From: a virus
Strand: one strand, 5' to 3'
Virus record (IMG/VR): IMGVR_UViG_3300042465_005589
Coordinates: 141,741 to 205,740 of that record
DNA: 64,000 nt
Below are positions 2,724 to 62,065 of this stretch, one piece after another. The position numbers and the translations under genes are program-made. Each line of letters opens with the position of its first letter. Position 1 is the stretch's first letter. The notes under the pieces are model-generated. The model had not been told where the DNA came from and did no database searches. It worked only from the letters and a program-made list of their open reading frames with translations.

Positions 2724-4310
2724 ATGTCAAATATCATAAAATATAATTTAAGTACATCACCAAATTCAATACAATCAGGTAATTTTAATGTTGCTGTTAA
2801 TAATACTCCAACAAATTTAACCGGATTTTATAACGGAATTTCCCCAATAAATGGGGGTTACACCATTTACATTAATAAAGAGTCTAATGGACCATCCATT
2901 TACGTCCCACAAAATGATAGTGATTTAATTCAAATAGTTAAACAATTGGGGGGTAATGTTTCAACTGCAGCGGAAGCTTTGGTTTGGATTAATTCTCAAA
3001 GTAATATGACGGTTCTAAATAATAATTACCCCTCAATTGTAACCAGTGGACTTGTATTAAATGTAGATGCAGGATTTGTATCTTCATACCCAAAAACCGG
3101 AACAACTTGGAAAGATTTGAGCGGTGGTGGAAATAACGGTACTTTAGTTAATGGACCAACTTATAGTAGTGGGAGTATAGTTTTTGATGGCGCGGATGAT
3201 AGAGTTCAGACAACATATTCTCCAAATTTTGGGGATTTTACAGTTTGTCTTATTTTTAAAGATAATGGTTCAAATGCTTGGGGGAGATTAGTAGATAAAT
3301 TATATACTACAGGTTTTTTCATTTCAAGCTATTTTGCATCATCAGGCGCTAATTACGTAGGCGCCGGAATAATAGAGCCTAATTATCCTTACGGAATAGC
3401 ACTTCCTTATGAATCAGGAAAGTATCACTATTTCGCCTCAGTTAGAAACGGAACAACTCATACAATCTACCTAGATGGTATTACCCAAACCACAAGCAAA
3501 ACAGTATCTTCTAATCTTCTAGATAGTACTTCTATCGCCTTTGGGGATTGGAGCGGGGGGGTAAGTCAACCTTTTAAAGGTGATTTACCATATGTTCAAA
3601 TTTACAACAGAGCACTCTCAGCCGCTGAGGTTCTACAAAACTATTACGCAGGACTACAAAGATTTATACCAACAGACGGATTAGTACTTTCATTAGATGC
3701 TCAAAATACAAATTTATATGCAATCTCTCCAACCACAGCATACGATGTGAGTGGGAATAATATAAATGGTACATTAACAAATGGTGTTCAATATGTTGGT
3801 GATGGAAATGGTTCATGGAGATTTGACGGGGTTGATGATGTGATAACATTAGGTTATCAACCATTATTAAATAATACTGATATAACACAGGAAGCTTGGG
3901 TTAATGGAAATTCTTTTACGAGTTGGCACGGAATTATTTCAAACATGCCTTCTTGGGGGACAGGGTTTAGTTTACAAATTGGTATAATACAAAATATTGC
4001 GGCAATGGTTAGTGGGACTTATTTGAAAACTTCTTGGGCGCCCTCTGTAAATGTTTGGTATCACATTGTGGCAACACATAGAAGTAGTGATAATTTCACT
4101 GCATTATATGTTAATGGTGTTTTAGAAAATACAACAACGCAAGCGGTAACTTATTCTGAAAATGCGATAACAACAATAGGGGTTTTTTATACTTCAGGGT
4201 CATTACCATTTAATGGTGAGATTGGGTCTGTTAAAACATACAACAGAGCATTAACGGCAACAGAAGTAACAACAATATATAACGCAACTAAATCAAGATA
4301 CGGATTATAA
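2724..4310 (+). CDS. Protein with two tandem LamG-like (Laminin_G_3 / concanavalin-like) domains. Candidate receptor-binding or tail-fibre-associated protein.
   Basis: Two repeated modules. The first runs W-KDLSGGGNNGTLVNGPTYSS...FDGADDRV and ends ...YNRALSAAEVLQNYY. The second runs YDVSGNNINGTLTNGVQYVGDG...FDGVDDVI and ends ...YNRALTATEVTTIYN. These are characteristic Laminin_G_3 motifs. Confidence 0.65.
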   Translation: MSNIIKYNLSTSPNSIQSGNFNVAVNNTPTNLTGFYNGISPINGGYTIYINKESNGPSIYVPQNDSDLIQIVKQLGGNVSTAAEALVWINSQSNMTVLNNNYPSIVTSGLVLNVDAGFVSSYPKTGTTWKDLSGGGNNGTLVNGPTYSSGSIVFDGADDRVQTTYSPNFGDFTVCLIFKDNGSNAWGRLVDKLYTTGFFISSYFASSGANYVGAGIIEPNYPYGIALPYESGKYHYFASVRNGTTHTIYLDGITQTTSKTVSSNLLDSTSIAFGDWSGGVSQPFKGDLPYVQIYNRALSAAEVLQNYYAGLQRFIPTDGLVLSLDAQNTNLYAISPTTAYDVSGNNINGTLTNGVQYVGDGNGSWRFDGVDDVITLGYQPLLNNTDITQEAWVNGNSFTSWHGIISNMPSWGTGFSLQIGIIQNIAAMVSGTYLKTSWAPSVNVWYHIVATHRSSDNFTALYVNGVLENTTTQAVTYSENAITTIGVFYTSGSLPFNGEIGSVKTYNRALTATEVTTIYNATKSRYGL

Positions 4311-7437: not shown

Positions 7438-7508
7438 CAAAAAAAGGGGCGGGGGGATTTTAATTCGACCGGAGGAAGATTGGGTGGGGAATAACGTTAC
7501 CACCAACC
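7438..7508. repeat. Intergenic repeat copy A (AAAAAAAGGGGCGGGGGGATTTTAATTCGACCGGAGGAAGATTGGGTGGGG...).
   Basis: It shares the AAAAAAGGGGGCGGGGGGATT head with copies B and C. It sits directly upstream, on the coding strand, of gene 6379..7416. Confidence 0.55.
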
Positions 7509-9639: not shown

Positions 9640-9911
9640 ATATCTTGTGTTTCGTTTGTGATTTTATCTCTACGAATATCCATTTCGTTAAGTTGTTCGG
9701 CTAATGAGGCATAACCATATTCATCATTGGTCGGTTTCATTTCCCAAGCATTTACTTCAACATAATTAATAGCTTCCTCTTGAGTCATACCATCTAATTC
9801 CGGATAATCAGAAAGGGTTAATTCTACCGGTTGTTTAGTGATTGATGTTTCATAATATTCTCTTGAGAATACTGCAATTGTTTTTGGGGTTTGTTCTGTT
9901 TGTTCTGACAT
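9615..9911 (-). CDS. Hypothetical acidic protein.
   Basis: 98-aa ORF that overlaps the downstream gene by 25 nt. Confidence 0.5.
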   Translation of the reverse strand: MSEQTEQTPKTIAVFSREYYETSITKQPVELTLSDYPELDGMTQEEAINYVEVNAWEMKPTNDEYGYASLAEQLNEMDIRRDKITNETQDICAVKEMF

Positions 9912-9940
9912 GATATATAATTTTAGATAAAGATATAAAT

Positions 9941-9965
9941 AAAAAACCCCACAATCAAGTGGGGG
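9941..9965 (-). terminator. Intrinsic terminator. The minus strand reads CCCCCACTTGATTGTGGGG followed by TTTTTT.
   Basis: 6-bp GC stem plus a T run, directly after the stop of 9966..10256. Confidence 0.6.
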
Positions 9966-10256
9966 TTAATAAAGTTCCTGGTAATTACGATAATAATCAA
10001 TCCTATTACCAAAATTTTTTCTAATTAAATCAGTTACATAAACTTTCTGTCCTAATGTTAAATCCTGTCTATCCGTTAAGTCGGAAATAACACGACGAAC
10101 AACCTCATCAAAATAATCATCACGATAATAAAATCTGGATACAATTGTAGGTTCACCCATAGAAACCAAATACTTGTCAACAAGTTTTCTGATAAGGTCA
10201 ATTCTTCTCTTAAACCATATGTTATTAAATTGATTCTCTGTAATTATTATTTTCAT
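9966..10256 (-). CDS. Hypothetical protein of the ITE family (MKIIITENQFNNIW...).
   Basis: Conserved N-terminus. An intrinsic terminator follows the stop at 9941-9965. Confidence 0.6.
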   Translation of the reverse strand: MKIIITENQFNNIWFKRRIDLIRKLVDKYLVSMGEPTIVSRFYYRDDYFDEVVRRVISDLTDRQDLTLGQKVYVTDLIRKNFGNRIDYYRNYQELY

Positions 10257-10633: not shown

Positions 10634-10656
10634 AATGATAAATATACATCATTCCA

Positions 10657-10704
10657 AAAAAAGGGGGCGGGGGGATTTGAGAACGACCGAAGGGAGTCCG
10701 GGTT
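10657..10704. repeat. Intergenic repeat copy B (AAAAAAAGGGGGCGGGGGGATTTGAGAACGACCGAAGGGAGTCCGGGTTATC).
   Basis: It shares an identical 19-nt core, GACCGAAGGGAGTCCGGGT, with copy C. It sits directly upstream of 10259..10633 and overlaps the stop of 10703..11302. Confidence 0.6.
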
Positions 10705-11317: not shown

Positions 11318-11345
11318 GACAAAGATATAAATAATATTTTAATTA
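11318..11345 (-). promoter_or_regulatory. Conserved upstream motif copy (GACAAAGATATAAATAATATTTT).
   Basis: About 15 nt upstream of the start of 10703..11302. Confidence 0.45.
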
Positions 11346-11353
11346 TCCAAACA

Positions 11354-11430
11354 AAAAAGGGGGCGGGGGGATTGAACCCGACCGAAGGGAGTCCGGGTCC
11401 ACAGAGGTCCGTCATTCCCGACCCCAACCG
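11354..11430. repeat. Intergenic repeat copy C, the longest (AAAAAAGGGGGCGGGGGGATTGAACCCGACCGAAGGGAGTCCGGGTCCACAGAGGTCCGTCATTCCCGACCCCAACC).
   Basis: It sits upstream of 10703..11302 and overlaps the 3' end of 11412..11819. Confidence 0.6.
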
Positions 11431-11890: not shown

Positions 11891-13153
11891 TTAATGTCTA
11901 TTCCCTTGACTCTTGTTATCAGAACTCTCCTGTAACACCAAGTTATCATACGTACTATCACCACCTTTAGAATGTGGTTTATCCTTATGACCCCCATTTA
12001 TAACCTTACCGTTCTTAACCTGAAGGGGGGTGTAAATCTCAACACTACCATCCAACCTCGTAACAACACCTCCGGTCTCAATACACTTAGCCAACTTCTC
12101 CATCTCAGTGAACAATCTCTTAGAATCCAACTCATAGAAGTATTCCCCAATAAACGGGTGGAAATCATTATACATACACTCAAACTTATATTTCAAATTC
12201 TTAGTCATAGAACGACATAGATATGTCCAATTACTATTCATAGGATTCTTAAAGGTATCAATTATCCTCTGATTGTCCAATTCCAAATACTTATCAACAA
12301 ACTCAGATATCAAATCCTTATTCAATACACAGTTGTATTCACGACTCATATCCAATAAGAACATAAACAAATTAAATGAATTACCCTTAGTAATATCCGA
12401 TTTAGTTTCGTGTATCAAATTAATACACTTACCCCATACCTTCATAATGTCATTGAAATTCTTCTCATTGAATATTTCAACATTCTTATACATCAAATCC
12501 AAATTAGTAGTGTTCAATGTCTTGTCCTTTGATTGGTGATAAGATAAAAACTGACTAACCAATTCCAAATCTTTCATCCTTGAAAAGGTCAACCCACTTA
12601 TCTTTAATAACTCCCCACTATAATCAATACCGTTCTTACGAATAAACTCAGAAATAATCCCCTCCTCAGCATTCCTTCTCTCTTGGGGATTAGCAGATGT
12701 ATTACTGTTCAAATTAATGAAGGTTCTATGTAATTGATTCTTCGTAGCATTGAAAATATACTTTAAACTAATCTCACTATTGAAGAAGTCAAACATCATA
12801 TCACTCAATGGGGAATTCCAATCAATCTCATTATACTTCTCAATCAAAAACTCAGTCCTGTTCCCCCCATCTATTGAAATGTAACGATACCCCTGATTCC
12901 ATAAACTTGAAAAATATTCATAGTCCTTCGTATTATTCTGACTAAAGGAATATTCCATTGAAGACTTAATGTCACACAATACAATGTTACTCGCATCTGT
13001 ACCATCTAACAATGATAAATGATAACTAACCTTGTCGGTTTTCTTCCACACTTTTCTTCTTTGAATAGTTGGGTCATAATATACCCTATTCCCCTTAACA
13101 ATGTGAATGAACCCCTGAATTGTTTTTGACTCGTACTTCTTAATGATTCCCAT
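11891..13153 (-). CDS. Candidate GmrSD-like type IV (modification-dependent) restriction protein, with an N-terminal DUF262 (ParB-like) region and a C-terminal DUF1524 (HNH-like) region.
   Basis: DUF262-like motifs YYDPTIQRRKVW and ISIDGGNRTEF (compare xPxYQRxYxW ... IDGQQR). C-terminal GGHKDKPHSKGGDSTYDNLVLQESSDNKSQGN resembles the DUF1524 H..P...GG...NL.L...N..KGN signature. Promoter motif lies 27 nt upstream. Confidence 0.55.
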   Translation of the reverse strand: MGIIKKYESKTIQGFIHIVKGNRVYYDPTIQRRKVWKKTDKVSYHLSLLDGTDASNIVLCDIKSSMEYSFSQNNTKDYEYFSSLWNQGYRYISIDGGNRTEFLIEKYNEIDWNSPLSDMMFDFFNSEISLKYIFNATKNQLHRTFINLNSNTSANPQERRNAEEGIISEFIRKNGIDYSGELLKISGLTFSRMKDLELVSQFLSYHQSKDKTLNTTNLDLMYKNVEIFNEKNFNDIMKVWGKCINLIHETKSDITKGNSFNLFMFLLDMSREYNCVLNKDLISEFVDKYLELDNQRIIDTFKNPMNSNWTYLCRSMTKNLKYKFECMYNDFHPFIGEYFYELDSKRLFTEMEKLAKCIETGGVVTRLDGSVEIYTPLQVKNGKVINGGHKDKPHSKGGDSTYDNLVLQESSDNKSQGNRH

Positions 13154-13179
13154 AACGTTTATGTTTTAAAGTTTAACGG

Positions 13180-13207
13180 GACAAAGATAATACTTTTTTT
13201 TTAATAA
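13180..13207 (-). promoter_or_regulatory. Conserved upstream motif copy (GACAAAGATAATACTTTTTTTTTTAATA).
   Basis: 27 nt upstream of the GmrSD-like gene start. Confidence 0.5.
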
Positions 13208-13426
13208 CCAAATTTTTTCCAGAATTTTTTTTTTCATATCTCATATTCCAATATACGATATGACCCCATCCGGAAATTTTCCGGATTACTAATCATTATT
13301 TCCGGATACCCAATTAACAGGGGGGATTTTCCCCAATTTTTTTCCAAAAATTTTTTAAGGTTTTTTTTCTCGAATACTTTGTTTAAGGGATTATCCCCCC
13401 TATTTGACTGTCAATATGTCATATAT

Positions 13427-13475
13427 GGAGGGGGGATACGGGGGAGGGAGGGGGTATGCCCCCACATAGGGGGTA
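13427..13475 (+). other. G-quadruplex-forming motif (G6-ATAC-G5-A-G3-A-G5) that overlaps mutually exclusive GC hairpins (GGGGGTATGCCCCC and CCCCCACATAGGGGG).
   Basis: GGAGGGGGGATACGGGGGAGGGAGGGGGTATGCCCCCACATAGGGGG, set in a genome of about 30% GC. Confidence 0.6.
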
Positions 13476-13531
13476 AGATGGGAGGAGTTATCATAAGTTA
13501 TGAACACTCCCTCCGGTATGATGTTAATAAG

Positions 13532-13972
13532 TTATTGCATTATGTAATGGTCACGACGTATTCGTCTTGGTACATTAACTATCTCCCCTCTGAAGTTTTC
13601 GTAAGGGTAATTGATTTGGAATTCTTCCGGTAGTTGTTCATTGACATCAGTCATTAGACGTTCCATGTTATCTGTTGTATCATATGATAGGTCTTTAAGT
13701 TGGGGGTTGTCATCGTAACTGAATAGACCACCCAATGTATATGTTTCATATGGACCTTGTGTATCAAGATGTTCTACCCAATGTTTATTGGTTTCAATAC
13801 CAAAGAAGTTAGCTAACATCTTATAGTCCACCATGAAGTCAATGTTTAACATGGTATCATACTTAAGGAAGTCATTAGATGGTTTCCATCCTAAGATGAA
13901 AGGGTATTTCTTTTTGATAGCGTTGACCATCATGTCCACACTTCTCATTTGTTTTTTAGTTAATTGTTCCAT
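13532..13972 (-). CDS. Hypothetical protein inside the low-coding region.
   Basis: 146-aa ORF with protein-like composition. Confidence 0.5.
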   Translation of the reverse strand: MEQLTKKQMRSVDMMVNAIKKKYPFILGWKPSNDFLKYDTMLNIDFMVDYKMLANFFGIETNKHWVEHLDTQGPYETYTLGGLFSYDDNPQLKDLSYDTTDNMERLMTDVNEQLPEEFQINYPYENFRGEIVNVPRRIRRDHYIMQ

Positions 13973-14054
13973 ATGTTAATAAATATAATGAAATTTGTTT
14001 GTGGATACAAATCTTTTTTGTATCTTTGTACCACAGAATCGGTAATCAGTCCGG

Positions 14055-14096
14055 ATGGGGGCGAACCTTAAGGGTGGAAGAGTAGACTCCACAGCG
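14055..14096. repeat. Degenerate repeat copy D (GGATGGGGGCGAACCTTAAGGGTGGAAGAGTAGACTCCACAG).
   Basis: It shares the GGGGGCG(A/G), AAGGG and CCACAG segments with copy C. Confidence 0.35.
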
Positions 14097-14414
14097 CTCT
14101 ATATTTATATATATCCCCCCATTTACTGAGAATATGATAATGGAGTATATATACTTCTGAAAATAATTGTTAATGAATCCCCCATTTTGTTGAGAATGTC
14201 ATAATTTATTTATATCTTTGTTAATTGACGGTGATTATCGCCGGTAACTATTAAACATTTAAACTATGATGATACTATTTAATATACTAATTGTGATGGG
14301 GGTTCTTATTTTCATTGGTGAAGTTGTGGCTCAGAAACTACCTAAAGACAATTCCTTTGTTATATGGTGGAGGAAACATATCATCGAACATTTATCCGAT
14401 GATGACCCCCGATT

Positions 14415-14744
14415 CTAATTCCCGTTTATAATATAGTCCTCGACACATTGAAGGGAATGTTCCCTTATCTCCATAGTCATCCCTGTTAAGTCATCACTTG
14501 ATAGGGGGGAATCTATATTTATCTTTTCTATAATATCCCCCATCTCACATGCCGTTAGAAGTAAAATCTTTTGACTGATTGGTTTTCTCTGTCCCGGAAG
14601 ACTAACATAATTATACTCACACACTCCTGTGTACTGCTCATAACTATAATTTACAATATACTTTTCCCCCTCACAAACAACCTCAATTGCGAAATTGTTT
14701 AGTAATCTTTGACTCTTATTTAGACTTGTTCTGTTTTGGTACAT
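14415..14744 (-). CDS. Hypothetical protein inside the low-coding region.
   Basis: 109-aa ORF. Confidence 0.45.
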   Translation of the reverse strand: MYQNRTSLNKSQRLLNNFAIEVVCEGEKYIVNYSYEQYTGVCEYNYVSLPGQRKPISQKILLLTACEMGDIIEKINIDSPLSSDDLTGMTMEIREHSLQCVEDYIINGN

Positions 14745-15282
14745 ATTATTAACACTTATTTGTTAATAAATATAAGGGTCTAATGTTTATTCTACATACT
14801 CATGGGGGGAATTGTTGATAACTTAATATGTTAAATTCCTTGATTTTGTCAAAATGTCATGTCTGTTTCACGATGGGGATAATCCTTTTTCCCACTTTTT
14901 CCCCCATTTAACCTACACAGTCTACCACTTTTTACCACCGGATATGGTCATGACGCTATGTCAGTGTCCACTTTTCCCCCTCTGTAGGTAGTGTTAGGAC
15001 CAATAAATTAGGTATAGACGTTTCCCAGTAAATTGTATTAGTTATGGTCTATGATGCGGTGGAACCGTTAGGTGTTAGGAGATTCACTTCAACGACCCGT
15101 TAAGGGTATATAATTGACCACTAATGAACGAATTAAAAATATATAATATGGGACACTATAGAGACATAAAATACCATTAAAACTTACTATTCGTATCACT
15201 CTTGTGAGTTTAAAACTGACTGTAGTGATACAAAACATAACTTTTTAATCGATACCGTAATACAAGTTACCGTAACGTCCAT

Positions 15283-15340
15283 TACAATGTTCATTTAAAT
15301 CTATTGTTCATTGCAAATGAACATACTCTAATAATGAACA
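15283..15340. promoter_or_regulatory. Cluster of TGTTCATT / AATGAACA half-sites, including the palindrome TGTTCATTGCAAATGAACA. Operator-like.
   Basis: Four half-sites within 58 nt at 15288-15295, 15305-15323 and 15333-15340. Confidence 0.4.
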
Positions 15341-15712
15341 CCTCATCCGGATAACTAATCATGTCTGTAGTTTGTGTCGGAGACCGACACATAGTGGAGT
15401 CCCACTCTATATGGGGGGAACTTGTTCCCCCAACATAAATGGGGGGATTGTTTACTTGACTATTAATGGTCAATAGTAAAATGTATATATGGTGAGTAAA
15501 AGGATTATAATATATGATGTGTAAAGTAAAACAGTTATAATATGTAAACTAATAGTATCTGTATAGATTATTGAGTTTTTTATACAGATGGAAGTTAACG
15601 TATATAAATAAATGGATTTCTTATACATAAGAAAATAGTAAAGGATAAAACTATGAGTGAATTCCGGAGTGAAACGCAGGACTATGAACGAATGGTTTAA
15701 TCGTTTAGTATT

Positions 15713-24862: not shown

Positions 24863-24890
24863 AAAAGGTCCCCGAAGGAACCTTTTTTTT
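24861..24890. terminator. Bidirectional hairpin AAAAAAGGTCCCCGAAGGAACCTTTTTTTTT.
   Basis: Ends the plus-strand gene 24377..24862 and, from the other side, the ORF-free unit that starts at the 25048 motif. Confidence 0.6.
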
Positions 24891-24895
24891 TATTT

Positions 24896-25035
24896 CACCA
24901 TAAGTTGAGGTTGTTAACCCGAATCATAACACTTGATTCTTAGCAGTTAGGTTTTAGGATTGCCTAACATTCCTTGTCACCATCTTTCGATGTATTTGGG
25001 TTTCCGCCCCTCTTTTTCGACATAATCTTTTATTC
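24896..25035 (-). ncRNA. Candidate small non-coding RNA of about 130 nt, running from the upstream motif to the hairpin terminator.
   Basis: No ORF longer than 19 codons. The segment is GC-richer and contains a GAGGGGCGGAAACCC segment related to the intergenic repeat head. It is bounded by the promoter-like motif at 25048-25072 and the terminator at 24861-24890. Confidence 0.25.
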
Positions 25036-25047
25036 CTTATTTGTTTG

Positions 25048-25072
25048 ACAAAGATAATACTTTTTTTAATAC
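25048..25072 (-). promoter_or_regulatory. Conserved upstream motif copy (GACAAAGATAATACTTTTTTTAATA) with no protein gene downstream on the minus strand.
   Basis: An ORF-free, GC-richer stretch of about 140 nt follows, then a hairpin terminator. Confidence 0.45.
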
Positions 25073-25167
25073 TACCAAACTTTTTTAAAGTTTTTTTTAT
25101 TTATTATCTAATTAACTTTAATGTCAGTAGTTATACGTATCATACATTAAAAAAGTTACAAAAACAT

Positions 25168-25353
25168 TCATTTCTTTTTCATTAATTCTTTAACAAATTC
25201 TTGTAGCTCAAATAGTTCAGGGTCCGTATCCAAAAGATAACGAGATTTCATATCATTATAGTTCTCTCGGATATCTGATATACACCATCCGAAGAACACA
25301 AACAATAATTTAACCTTTATTTTTATCTTTTTTAAACTCATCTTTAATAACAA
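25168..25353 (-). CDS. Hypothetical small protein with an uncertain start (TTG at 25353; ATGs further in).
   Basis: 61-aa track ORF. It overlaps, in another frame, a possible 34-aa membrane ORF. Confidence 0.3.
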   Translation of the reverse strand: MLLKMSLKKIKIKVKLLFVFFGWCISDIRENYNDMKSRYLLDTDPELFELQEFVKELMKKK

Positions 25354-25420
25354 TTAACGCAAAAACACAAACAATACCAATCAATAATGGTAGTGGTGCA
25401 GAAGGGTCTAATGTTTCCAT
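25316..25420 (-). CDS. Possible 34-aa single-pass membrane peptide (METLDPSAPLPLLIGIVCVFALIVIK...).
   Basis: Hand-translated. Its start overlaps the stop of the upstream small ORF as TAATG. Too short to be in the track. Confidence 0.25.
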
Positions 25421-25578
25421 TATTCCTCCTTAGATTTCTTTTTATTCACTTTTTTTTTCTTGACCGATGGTTTAACAACCATTTCCTCTTGAGCAATTCG
25501 TTTAGGGGTTTTCTTCACTAAATAAAGAACAAGTGATACTAAAATCACAAGGGTTGCGGCAAGTGCAATGAATTTCAT
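25420..25578 (-). CDS. Possible 52-aa membrane protein (MKFIALAATLVILVSLVLYLVKK...), Lys-rich at its C-terminus.
   Basis: Hand-translated, with a hydrophobic N-terminal helix. Confidence 0.3.
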   Translation of the reverse strand: MKFIALAATLVILVSLVLYLVKKTPKRIAQEEMVVKPSVKKKKVNKKKSKEE

Positions 25579-25593
25579 TTTTGTTGGGTTTGC

Positions 25594-61616: not shown

Positions 61617-61618
61617 AA

Positions 61619-61807
61619 TTAATTTTTAATAATATAGGTTAAACAATACGATATTGCCAATCCAAGATAAATAAGTTCCCCTTTATTCCATAAGAATCTC
61701 TTTGGTGGGTTTGAGAACAGGGAACTTACCAATCTAGCAACTGTTCTAAAAACAGTTAAAACTGAAAAGATAAATACAAATAAAAAAATTGTATCAATAC
61801 TATCCAT
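61619..61807 (-). CDS. Small membrane protein.
   Basis: 62-aa ORF with two hydrophobic segments. Confidence 0.4.
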   Translation of the reverse strand: MDSIDTIFLFVFIFSVLTVFRTVARLVSSLFSNPPKRFLWNKGELIYLGLAISYCLTYIIKN

Positions 61808-61983
61808 TACTCGTCTTTTTTTCTTTCAGATAAAATCTCTTTTCTCAAGACATCTAATAATTTTTTCAAATCTTGTGCAGATTTTCGTGCTCTTGTTCCT
61901 GCACTTTTATTACCTCCAAAAAATTTTGAAGTATCGACTGATAACTCTTCGGTTAAAGATTTAATTTGTTCTAATGTTTCCAT
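61807..61983 (-). CDS. Possible small basic histone-H1-like DNA-binding protein (Bacteroidota type), 58 aa.
   Basis: Hand-translated as METLEQIKSLTEELSVDTSKFFGGNKSAGTRARKSAQDLKKLLDVLRKEILSERKKDE. The GNKSAGTRARK motif is recalled from small Bacteroidota histone-like proteins. Confidence 0.35.
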   Translation of the reverse strand: METLEQIKSLTEELSVDTSKFFGGNKSAGTRARKSAQDLKKLLDVLRKEILSERKKDE

Positions 61984-62065
61984 TTCAAATTGTGTTAATT
62001 AATTTATTTTTAATACTTATAAAGTAATTTTTTTAATCGTATAGTAAACACTATAAAGGATTTTT

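Follow-up and report, generated by a model that had tools for sequence, protein, structure and literature searches.

A candidate cis-regulatory control cassette conserved among uncultured aquatic jumbo phages of Bacteroidota

A gene-poor region at positions 13154-15712 of a 64,000-nucleotide stretch of viral DNA (positions 141,741 to 205,740 of the IMG/VR record IMGVR_UViG_3300042465_005589; hereafter the window, examined out of a genome of about 320 kb) is interpreted here, tentatively and at somewhat less than an even chance, as a conserved cis-regulatory control cassette of widespread uncultured aquatic Bacteroidota jumbo phages, the contigs of which reach about 320 kb. An earlier note, made from the letters alone, had singled out this region as a candidate replication origin, regulatory hub or RNA locus. 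Among these options the regulatory hub is the best supported, by predicted promoters that point both ways, by repeats that coincide with promoter modules and by dyad-symmetric sites beside predicted promoters, whereas the RNA locus found no support and the origin was neither demonstrated nor eliminated. In the mechanism that we propose, two mirrored blocks of binding sites, Blocks A and B, would flank three or four small genes (p109, p50 and p146, with p44 in relatives), which would be transcribed from promoters of the host sigma type pointing in both directions. Sequence-specific proteins would occupy a 13-bp palindrome, GGGGAT(T/A)ATCCCC, a TGACAnnnTGACA pair and 9-bp boxes, the word of which is TTATnAACA in the window and TTATCCACA in sister lineages, and joint occupancy of the two blocks, which are separated by about 1.5 kb, would coordinate the expression of the cassette with that of the flanking gene. 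We infer the identity of the binding proteins, the transcriptional rather than replicative role and the looping between the blocks.

The region is unusual in its composition, much as the earlier note had stated. Coding sequence makes up about 30% of it, compared with 87% of the window (31% GC, with nearly all genes on the minus strand in a greedy gene call), and the largest gap between genes in the window (968 nt) is found here. No long open reading frame (ORF) was opened in the region when TGA, TAG or TAA was read as sense, and an alternative genetic code was rejected on this ground. Both of the ORFs that had been recognized are genuine genes, with 96 homolog clusters for p109 and 101 for p146, but a third conserved ORF, p50, had been missed. 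The excess of G runs and hairpins was confirmed. The region holds 22 of the 70 runs of at least five G or C in the window (binomial p = 2e-14), its non-coding DNA carrying 9.8 such runs per kb versus 2.1 per kb in other non-coding DNA, and 15 perfect hairpins of at least 7 bp, compared with 3.3 +/- 2.2 expected from Markov simulations, none of which (0 of 300) reached 15. The word GGGGGAT occurs 19 times in the window (6.6 expected), with 7 of the 19 copies inside the region. Most of the listed elements lie where they had been placed (13269-13306, 13320-13334, 13387-13397, 13430-13454, about 14230-14242, 15374-15390 and 15413-15431, with iterons at 14892, 14925 and 14968), but two hairpins had to be moved: GATACAAA/TTTGTATC is at 14004-14024 and not at 14027-14047, and ATCTGTATA/TATACAGAT is at 15558-15589 and not at 15563-15600. 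The importance given to these elements stands for the iterons, the GGGATTATCCC palindrome and the G-rich motif, which are kept in distant relatives, but not for the others, since the TCCGGA palindrome, GTCATGAC, the 15374-15390 hairpin and the AT-rich tail are specific to a lineage or to the window. The region should also not be treated as a single feature. It is a mosaic of three small genes, at least five candidate Bacteroidota-type promoters in both directions, the conserved Blocks A and B, and variable, lineage-specific filler.

The conserved architecture was recognized by comparison at three levels of divergence: the near-identical contigs L001-L005; L093, L095 and L096, with about 75% DNA identity; and L007 and L008, in which the 420-aa flanking protein is 69-77% identical, together with copies from IMG/VR and metagenomes recovered through the DNA core. 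A protein-pattern search of IMG/VR with p420 and p146 gave no matches, and the search with the DNA core motif succeeded. Blocks A and B recur in more than 140 metagenomic and viral contigs of up to 323 kb. For Block A, 16 non-redundant viral copies were aligned and 80 metagenome copies were added; across the 16 viral and at least 80 metagenome contigs, the non-coding DNA around Blocks A and B has diverged and the blocks themselves have been kept. The architecture, this pattern of conservation at the DNA level and the promoter consensus matches described below are direct observations.

The anatomy is described here along the minus strand, as the surrounding genes are read. Block A (about 14770-15075, read 15075->14770) is conserved non-coding DNA upstream of p109 and consists of short invariant words in a fixed order with variable spacers between them: a distal segment, two to four GGGGAAAAAGTGG-type repeats, the palindrome GGGGATTATCCCC, the pair TGACATTtTGACA, an A/T tract, a 9-bp box and the p109 promoter. 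In the window these are, all on the minus strand, the distal words ACACCTAACGGTTCCACCGC (about 15075) and then CTGGGAAA; the iterons GGGGAAAAGTGG at 14968-14980, 14925-14937 and 14892-14904, which are conserved across lineages; the palindrome GGATTATCCCC at 14875-14885; the TGACA-pair word TGACATTTTGACA at 14847-14859; and the box GTTATCAACA at 14813-14822. Within the window, the Block A motifs are unique to the region. Block B (13385-13530, read 13530->13385) is conserved non-coding DNA downstream of p146 and upstream of the next gene. On the same strand it contains the boxes GTTATGAACA and AGTTATCAT inside a G/C hairpin (13489-13506), a CCCCC/GGGGG hairpin (13459-13473), the invariant C-rich core CCCCCTCCCTCCCCCGTATCCCCCCTCC (13430-13454), TGACATATTGACA (13409-13421) and the palindrome GGGATTATCCCC (13387-13400), and it carries a TGACA or TGTCA pair. 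Read on the plus strand, the C-rich core is the G-quadruplex (G4) motif GGGGGGATACGGGGGAGGGAGGGGG, with four G runs of at least three bases and short loops, the complement of which is invariant across lineages. Blocks A and B share the 13-bp palindrome, the TGACAnnnTGACA pair, of which the 64 kb hold two copies, one per block, and the 9-bp boxes. In most lineages Block B mirrors Block A; in relatives the distance from Block A down to Block B has a median of about 1.5 kb and a range of 1.1-3.5 kb. Two other gene-free gaps in the window, at 24863-25593 (731 nt) and 61617-62065 (449 nt), have neither the palindrome of the two blocks nor the TGACA-pair motif.

The short exact words, their variable spacing and the variable orientation of Block B argue for protein-binding DNA and not for a folded RNA, and this indicates that Blocks A and B are probably arrays of protein-binding sites that act at the DNA level. 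In a non-coding RNA locus, the GC hairpins would be structured RNAs such as small RNAs, a riboswitch or an attenuator, made by transcription from promoters within the region. The several stable hairpins, the conserved GC-rich stretch of about 80 nt without an ORF that follows the predicted plus-strand promoter P+1 (14035-14112), and a double change in the ATGAACA palindrome of L096 that preserves pairing are consistent with this reading. However, the covariance search that had been suggested as a check gave no Rfam match over the window at the gathering threshold, and the best permissive matches (E = 0.19 and 0.67) fell far below gathering; no tRNA or tmRNA was found. RNAalifold, applied to 15 copies of Block A on both strands, gave five pairs, all in the invariant palindrome, with no compensatory change, and for 10 copies of Block B it gave 13 pairs, 10 of them invariant in a 10-bp inverted repeat, with one compensatory change in a 3-bp helix. 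With essentially no compensatory pairs, with several hairpins that are lineage-specific or insertions, and with motifs whose orientation differs between genomes, we consider an RNA locus barely credible.

A regulatory role is suggested above all by the predicted promoters. The Bacteroidota consensus TTTG-N19-TAnnTTTG, usually in the form tatTATCTTTG, stands upstream of many genes in the window, where TTTG-N17-21-TAnnTTTG has 20 matches, and an extended TATTATCTTTG form is found upstream of minus-strand genes. Promoters of the sigma-A type, with TTTG at -33, a spacer of about 19 nt and TAnnTTTG at -7, are predicted in the region, as exact matches, at 13212->13182 on the minus strand and at 13998-14028 on the plus strand, and a near-canonical match (TTG-N20) is predicted at 14190-14220 on the plus strand. 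The first of these (13182-13212, TTTG-N19-TATCTTTG, from a pattern scan) is the predicted promoter of the 420-aa gene and is conserved in L008. The second belongs to a zone of back-to-back predicted promoters on both strands (13973-14030), which is among the best-conserved stretches and matches L034. Here the predicted minus-strand promoter of p146 (TTTG...TATATTTA), with a TTATTAACA box at the ATG, adjoins P+1 (TTTG-N19-TATCTTTG, 13998-14028); a GTATCCACA box lies at 14000-14008, and the GATACAAA/TTTGTATC hairpin (14004-14024) forms the P+1 spacer. P+1 is followed on the plus strand by a leader (14035-14112, 47% GC) with the invariant TGGAAGAGTAGACTCCA, which has no Rfam match and may be a 5' untranslated region or a short transcript.

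The two 30-nt direct repeats pointed out previously correspond to two tandem predicted promoter modules on the plus strand (14113-14220), each with a C run and -33 and -7 elements. The first module (14113-14160) is degenerate and the second, P+2, is canonical, with TTG at 14190 and TATCTTTG at 14213-14220. We take the repeats, which are kept only among the closer relatives L093, L095 and L096, to be duplicated promoter modules that would drive the small plus-strand ORFs. Near the predicted P+2 start lies GGTGATTATCGCC (14229-14243), a variant of the block palindrome that L093 has and L095 and L096 lack. The predicted promoter and operator zone of p109 on the minus strand (14746-14775) has the inverted boxes TTATTAACA-N6-TGTTAATAA (14746-14769) and a -7-like TATATTTA, and is nearly 100% conserved among L093, L095 and L096; the starts of p146 and p109 have a common TTATATTTATTAAC upstream module. 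Dyad-symmetric sites, as in operator regions, are found at or near predicted promoters in at least two clusters (13387-13400, 14875-14885 and 14746-14769).

The 9-bp box gives further information about the proteins that might bind. At its fixed position after the TGACA pair, 26 of the 80 metagenome copies carry TTATCCACA, a perfect DnaA box, and 39 of the 80 carry TTAT[C/G/T]AACA. The class of the box is uniform within a genome and different between lineages. TTATnCACA occurs inside and outside the span between Blocks A and B 7 and 0 times in L007, 6 and 0 times in L017 and 4 and 2 times in L034, whereas the corresponding numbers for TTATnAACA are 6 and 15 in the window (about 10 times the density of the other 61.5 kb), 5 and 1 in L048 and 4 and 0 in L088; the A-B span of the window has no TTATnCACA box. 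The perfect TTATCCACA boxes of L007, L017 and L034 number 6, 6 and 4, all of them in the A-B span, with no others in the 13-20 kb checked. The change is coordinated at homologous positions: where the DnaA-box lineages have TGTGGATAA upstream of the p109 homolog, as in L017, the window has TGTTAATAA. The sequences show a concerted switch of box class genome by genome, a pattern that would be expected for an operator co-evolving with its cognate protein. In the window the boxes adjoin predicted promoters or gene ends, with an inverted pair by the ATG of p109 and single boxes at the ATG of p146 and just past its stop, and in L007 the distance from the perfect boxes to the starts of the small genes downstream of them is likewise short, at 56-100 nt.

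The same boxes also bear on an alternative, namely that the region is a replication origin or replication-control region built of iterons and DnaA boxes, which we regard as possible but doubtful. In such an origin the iterons and 9-bp boxes would assemble an initiator (the DnaA of the host in the TTATCCACA lineages, a different factor in the window), nearby A/T tracts would melt, replication may be activated or primed by transcription from promoters within the region, and Block B would be a second cis site like crr of P4 or incA of P1. The three GGGGAAAAGTGG repeats are conserved across lineages at distances of 33 and 43 bp, or about 3 and 4 helical turns; as 13-nt CCACTTTT(T)CCCC repeats they are shorter than the classic iterons of 17-22 bp. 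The confinement of the perfect boxes of L007, L017 and L034 to the A-B span in the 13-20 kb checked and the fixed position of TTATCCACA in about a third of the metagenome copies are also in agreement with an origin, as are four ATGAACA half-boxes clustered at 15288-15340, two on one strand and then two on the other. L093 and L096 both keep this cluster of 4 copies in 53 bp, the palindrome of L096 having undergone one symmetric double change, and the region has 6 of the 24 copies of ATGAACA in the window. A/T tracts of 22-26% GC adjoin the repeats, the two clusters of sites are 1.5 kb apart, and the region, poor in genes, has no counterpart in the rest of the 64 kb.

However, a cluster of DnaA boxes is found in the sisters L007, L017 and L034 (4-7 sites) and not in the window. 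Canonical DnaA boxes (TTATNCACA) in the window were a candidate that we rejected: the region has none, and boxes with at most one mismatch are not enriched in the window. Moreover, TTATnAACA breaks the conserved C6 of TTATNCACA, a position known from the DnaA of E. coli. The cumulative GC-skew analysis that the earlier note had recommended, run over the 64-kb window, gave a steady fall with a plateau at 13-16 kb and no extremum, and the flanking genes are co-oriented both here and in the relatives. No gene for an initiator, helicase or primase is adjacent, none is among the top matches listed for the 82 ORFs of the window, and p109 and p146 have no Rep-like fold. Most of the boxes are near promoters and gene ends and are not arranged around one unwinding element. 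A further argument comes from L095, a contig of 208 kb, in which about 700 nt are missing (around 9756-10000, corresponding to 14880-15540 of the window). The missing segment covers the iterons, the ATGAACA cluster and, with a breakpoint inside the Block A palindrome, the left half of that palindrome. The part of Block A next to p109 and the p109 promoter are nearly invariant among L093, L095 and L096 even with this loss of the distal iterons; L096, the p109 protein of which is identical to that of L095, nevertheless has a full Block A.

Known origins of the iteron and DnaA-box kind (oriR of P1 with incC, repA and incA, oriS of F, pSC101, and ori and crr of P4) resemble the cassette in their repeats at near-helical phase, in the DnaA boxes of the sister lineages and in their A/T tracts, and P4 ori and crr likewise form a pair of cis sites at a distance from each other, with one short repeat common to both and present in either orientation. 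Unlike these origins, the cassette lacks a rep or initiator gene between or beside its sites, shows neither a canonical DnaA box in the window nor a change of skew, and has lost its iterons in one relative. It has also been considered that the cassette is the centre of replication and copy control of a large, globally distributed phage family and switched its initiator specificity, with mimicry of the host oriC by 4-7 DnaA-type boxes in some lineages versus a concerted TTATnAACA class read by a different factor in others, including that of the window, which we think unlikely. The interpretations as control cassette and as origin can overlap, because transcription-activated origins exist.

Several results weigh against the control cassette and explain why we propose it only tentatively. 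First, no gene for a cognate repressor or regulator was recognized in the region or among the flanking ORFs. The cassette has no recognizable DNA-binding or repressor-like gene: the confident structure model of p109 shows no helix-turn-helix (HTH), ribbon-helix-helix (RHH) or winged-helix fold, p146 has only weak KH-like matches, and no protein of any of these three fold types turned up among p109, p146, p50 and the flanking ORFs. Second, canonical promoter matches have only about three times the density in the region that they have elsewhere in the window, the -7 motif by itself shows no enrichment in the region, a generic sigma-70 scan gave no enrichment (19 versus 15.6), and every start site is a predicted one. 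Third, the GTGG iterons, the AT-rich stretches and, in sister lineages, the clusters of 4-7 DnaA-type boxes suit an origin at least as naturally as a regulatory region.

Among known systems, the immunity region of lambda (OL/PL...cI, rex...OR/PRM/PR) is similar to the proposed control cassette in having two clusters of dyad sites 1-2 kb apart around a few small genes, promoters in both directions, and a site sequence specific to each lineage, which recalls immunity specificity. Unlike the lambda region, the cassette lacks an HTH repressor gene, combines several unrelated kinds of site (palindrome, tandem TGACA, GTGG iterons and 9-bp boxes) and has promoters of the Bacteroidota type, and the window gives no evidence of lysogeny. 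The regulators KorB and ParB, with the OB sites of RK2 and with parS, offer another comparison. Their dispersed palindromic operators of 13-16 bp are like the invariant 13-bp palindrome, which has few copies near promoters, and in several relatives a gene with a weak ParB-N domain stands beside Block B; on the other hand, the score of the ParB_N match does not reach the Pfam threshold, the window lacks the gene and no ParA was seen.

The palindromes might also be sites of the parS or OB type for the loading of a ParB-N protein in partition, an explanation that we hold to be very improbable. In L008 and L093-L096, a different gene of 287-291 aa, weakly ParB-N-like, comes directly after Block B. 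The 287-aa gene in L093, L095 and L096 is the basis of the proposal, the L093 copy having a weak ParB_N match (E = 3e-4), together with the similar 291-aa gene of L008, which has a DGQHR motif, and with the invariance of a palindrome that has just two or three copies. However, the ParB_N score is under the Pfam cutoff, the L008 protein has no Pfam match, no ParA partner was seen, and the window keeps both palindromes and yet has no homolog of the 287-aa and 291-aa genes. Neither an integrase nor a ParB-like gene was found in the window.

The mirrored ends might instead mark a module of recombination or mobility, in which Blocks A and B would delimit a mobile, invertible or exchangeable cassette (as with att sites, invertase sites or PeSL-like shuffling cassettes) with the help of a recombinase such as the tyrosine recombinase beside the region in L008; we regard this as improbable. 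The palindrome and TGACA modules are mirrored at both ends in most lineages, the genes that flank the cassette differ between relatives, small polymorphisms by inversion, deletion and insertion are seen in the region, and in L008 a gene of the Phage_integrase family lies about 1.1 kb from Block A. This gene is the C-terminal part of a tyrosine recombinase at the start of the contig (3-326; Phage_integrase, E = 9e-20), but it has no homolog in the 64-kb window. Within one genome the shared end modules are alike over only about 14 nt, and the orientation of the cassette with respect to the downstream genes is constant in every genome examined, so that an invertible segment was rejected. A 17-nt repeat (13280-13296 and 15346-15362) brackets the cassette in the window, but it is specific to the window and the pair is not conserved in relatives; att-like direct repeats were therefore rejected as well.

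Contig breaks that accumulate at Blocks A and B might also be taken as a sign of mobility. Several contigs end in or beside the region. Of 66 full-length metagenome contigs, 19 terminate upstream of the Block A palindrome at a distance of no more than 300 nt, and 27 terminate 1.3-2.0 kb downstream of it, at the location of Block B. These breaks fit a conserved core between variable flanks, or could come from microdiversity or from G/C homopolymers that are poorly sequenced; they are not read as genome ends. In the metagenome loci L098-L177, the cassette is often alone on a contig of 1.5-2.5 kb, and most contigs that bear p109 are shorter than 2 kb. L093 (320,782 bp) and L094 (88,116 bp), two independent contigs from separate samples, have ends no more than about 70 nt apart, at a distance of about 6.2 kb downstream from p109, and this near-coincidence could reflect a repeat or a genome end.

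The PeSL cassettes of T4-like phages consist of a terminator hairpin, an upstream motif and an early-type promoter between accessory genes in a plastic arm of the genome. The region is similar in its repeated regulatory modules between small accessory genes and in the indels at module borders, but Blocks A and B each occur once, are far larger and keep a constant position, and the description of PeSL suits another motif of these genomes, CGGTCG...CCCCCCGCCCCCTTTTTTT, better. This recurrent intergenic motif, CGGTCG-N7-8-AATCCCCCCGCCCCCTTTTTTT, is found on the minus strand of the window at 7440-7475, 10650-10690 and 11345-11385, and in relatives at 1484-1500 of L006, at about 11027 and at 12103 of L007, and at 4244, 5672 and 6265 of L008. 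At 11351 of the window and 4273 of L008 it is immediately upstream of a Bacteroidota-type -33 TTTG, and in relatives it often lies about 40 nt after a terminator hairpin, CCCCCGC...GGGGGTTTTTT. The first half of the motif resembles the T-arm of tRNA (GGTTCAAATCC). It looks like a reusable cassette of terminator, upstream element and promoter between accessory genes.

The small genes between the blocks are conserved. On the minus strand lie p109 (14415-14744, read 14744->14415), which is downstream of Block A in every relative with checkable downstream sequence, and p146 (13532-13972, read 13972->13532); neither of these small proteins has a sequence match in Pfam, PHROG or PDB. On the plus strand, p50 (14266-14418), convergent with p109, encodes a small hydrophobic protein with a predicted membrane helix and is conserved in L008, L088 and L093-L096. 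In relatives a 44-aa ORF, p44, is found just upstream of p50 on the same strand (457-584 of L002, and 10479-10613 in L093, L095 and L096), which the window lacks through a precise deletion of 128 nt at about 14265. The region is flanked by a minus-strand gene of 420 aa (11891-13153) from a family in which some members have HNH endonuclease domains (PF01844 and PF13395); the window copy has no Pfam match.

The remaining parts of the region are largely variable. Between the 420-aa gene and Block B, the TCCGGAAATTTTCCGGA palindrome with a third TTCCGGA (13269-13306) is lineage-specific and of low conservation in L093, L095 and L096, and the GGGGGGATTTTCCCC hairpin with a T run (13320-13334, plus strand) is terminator-like, with a similar GGGAAAATTTCCCC in L008. 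On the distal side of Block A lies an imperfect palindrome of 67 nt (15179-15245), with 33-nt arms that are 73% complementary, which is flipped between collinear flanks in L015 (221-283), L056 (5520-5582) and L096 (upstream of Block A), where the reversed orientation gives the higher alignment score, and is a small inversion polymorphism of the flip type. It is followed, beyond the ATGAACA half-boxes, by the GC hairpin GTGTCGGAGACCGACAC (15374-15390), an insertion unique to the window, by G-run and C-run hairpins (15401-15448) common to L093 and L096, and by an AT-rich spacer (15460-15640, 22-30% GC, conservation 0.33-0.50) that contains the 9-bp hairpin at 15558-15589. The last part, at 15640-15712 on the minus strand, is a conserved segment of about 70 nt with two TTCACTC repeats (CGTTTCACTCCGGAATTCACTCA) directly after the stop of the upstream 152-aa gene; it is retained in L095 despite its deleted flanks, and a similar motif is present in L008.

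We concluded that the source is probably an uncultured jumbo phage of Bacteroidota. This assignment is based on the promoter consensus, on a lone match to a Bacteroidetes metagenome-assembled genome (MAG), on the long contigs of relatives (208, 321, 322 and 323 kb) and on the absence of cultured relatives. When about 186,000 reference genomes were searched with the element, the single match was a 3.6-kb contig binned into the MAG, and a prophage in sequenced bacteria was therefore rejected. Among cultured relatives, megablast found no phage record and tblastn found only an HNH protein of a cyanophage with 23% identity. Many public contigs, some of 0.2-1 Mb, encode the exact proteins of the window, and by their names the contigs with the cassette come from many freshwater metagenomes and a few marine ones. 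The majority of the window proteins have no family match; those that do belong to accessory families of the large-phage type, such as DNA methyltransferases, DnaJ, thioredoxin, NUDIX and endonuclease VII, or are a Laminin_G_3 protein and a structural protein of the virion.

Control regions or origins composed of repeats, palindromes and promoters are familiar in phages. The element described here is absent from Rfam and from annotated phage records, and the literature searched on jumbo phages, Bacteroidetes and DnaA-box origins yielded nothing on it. To our knowledge, no control region or origin has been mapped for any uncultured jumbo phage, and our search of the literature on Bacteroidota phages found none. 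The cassette is a sharply defined non-coding landmark, unique in 64 kb, that can be used as a marker to recruit and orient the fragmented contigs of this phage family. Its ordered invariant words are concrete targets for binding assays, and the concerted switch of the boxes is a natural experiment, by which the cognate DNA-binding protein may be found through phylogenetic profiling. If the region is an origin, it would be the first for such phages; if it is a regulatory switch, as we tentatively suggest, it would point to the early regulatory logic of the family.

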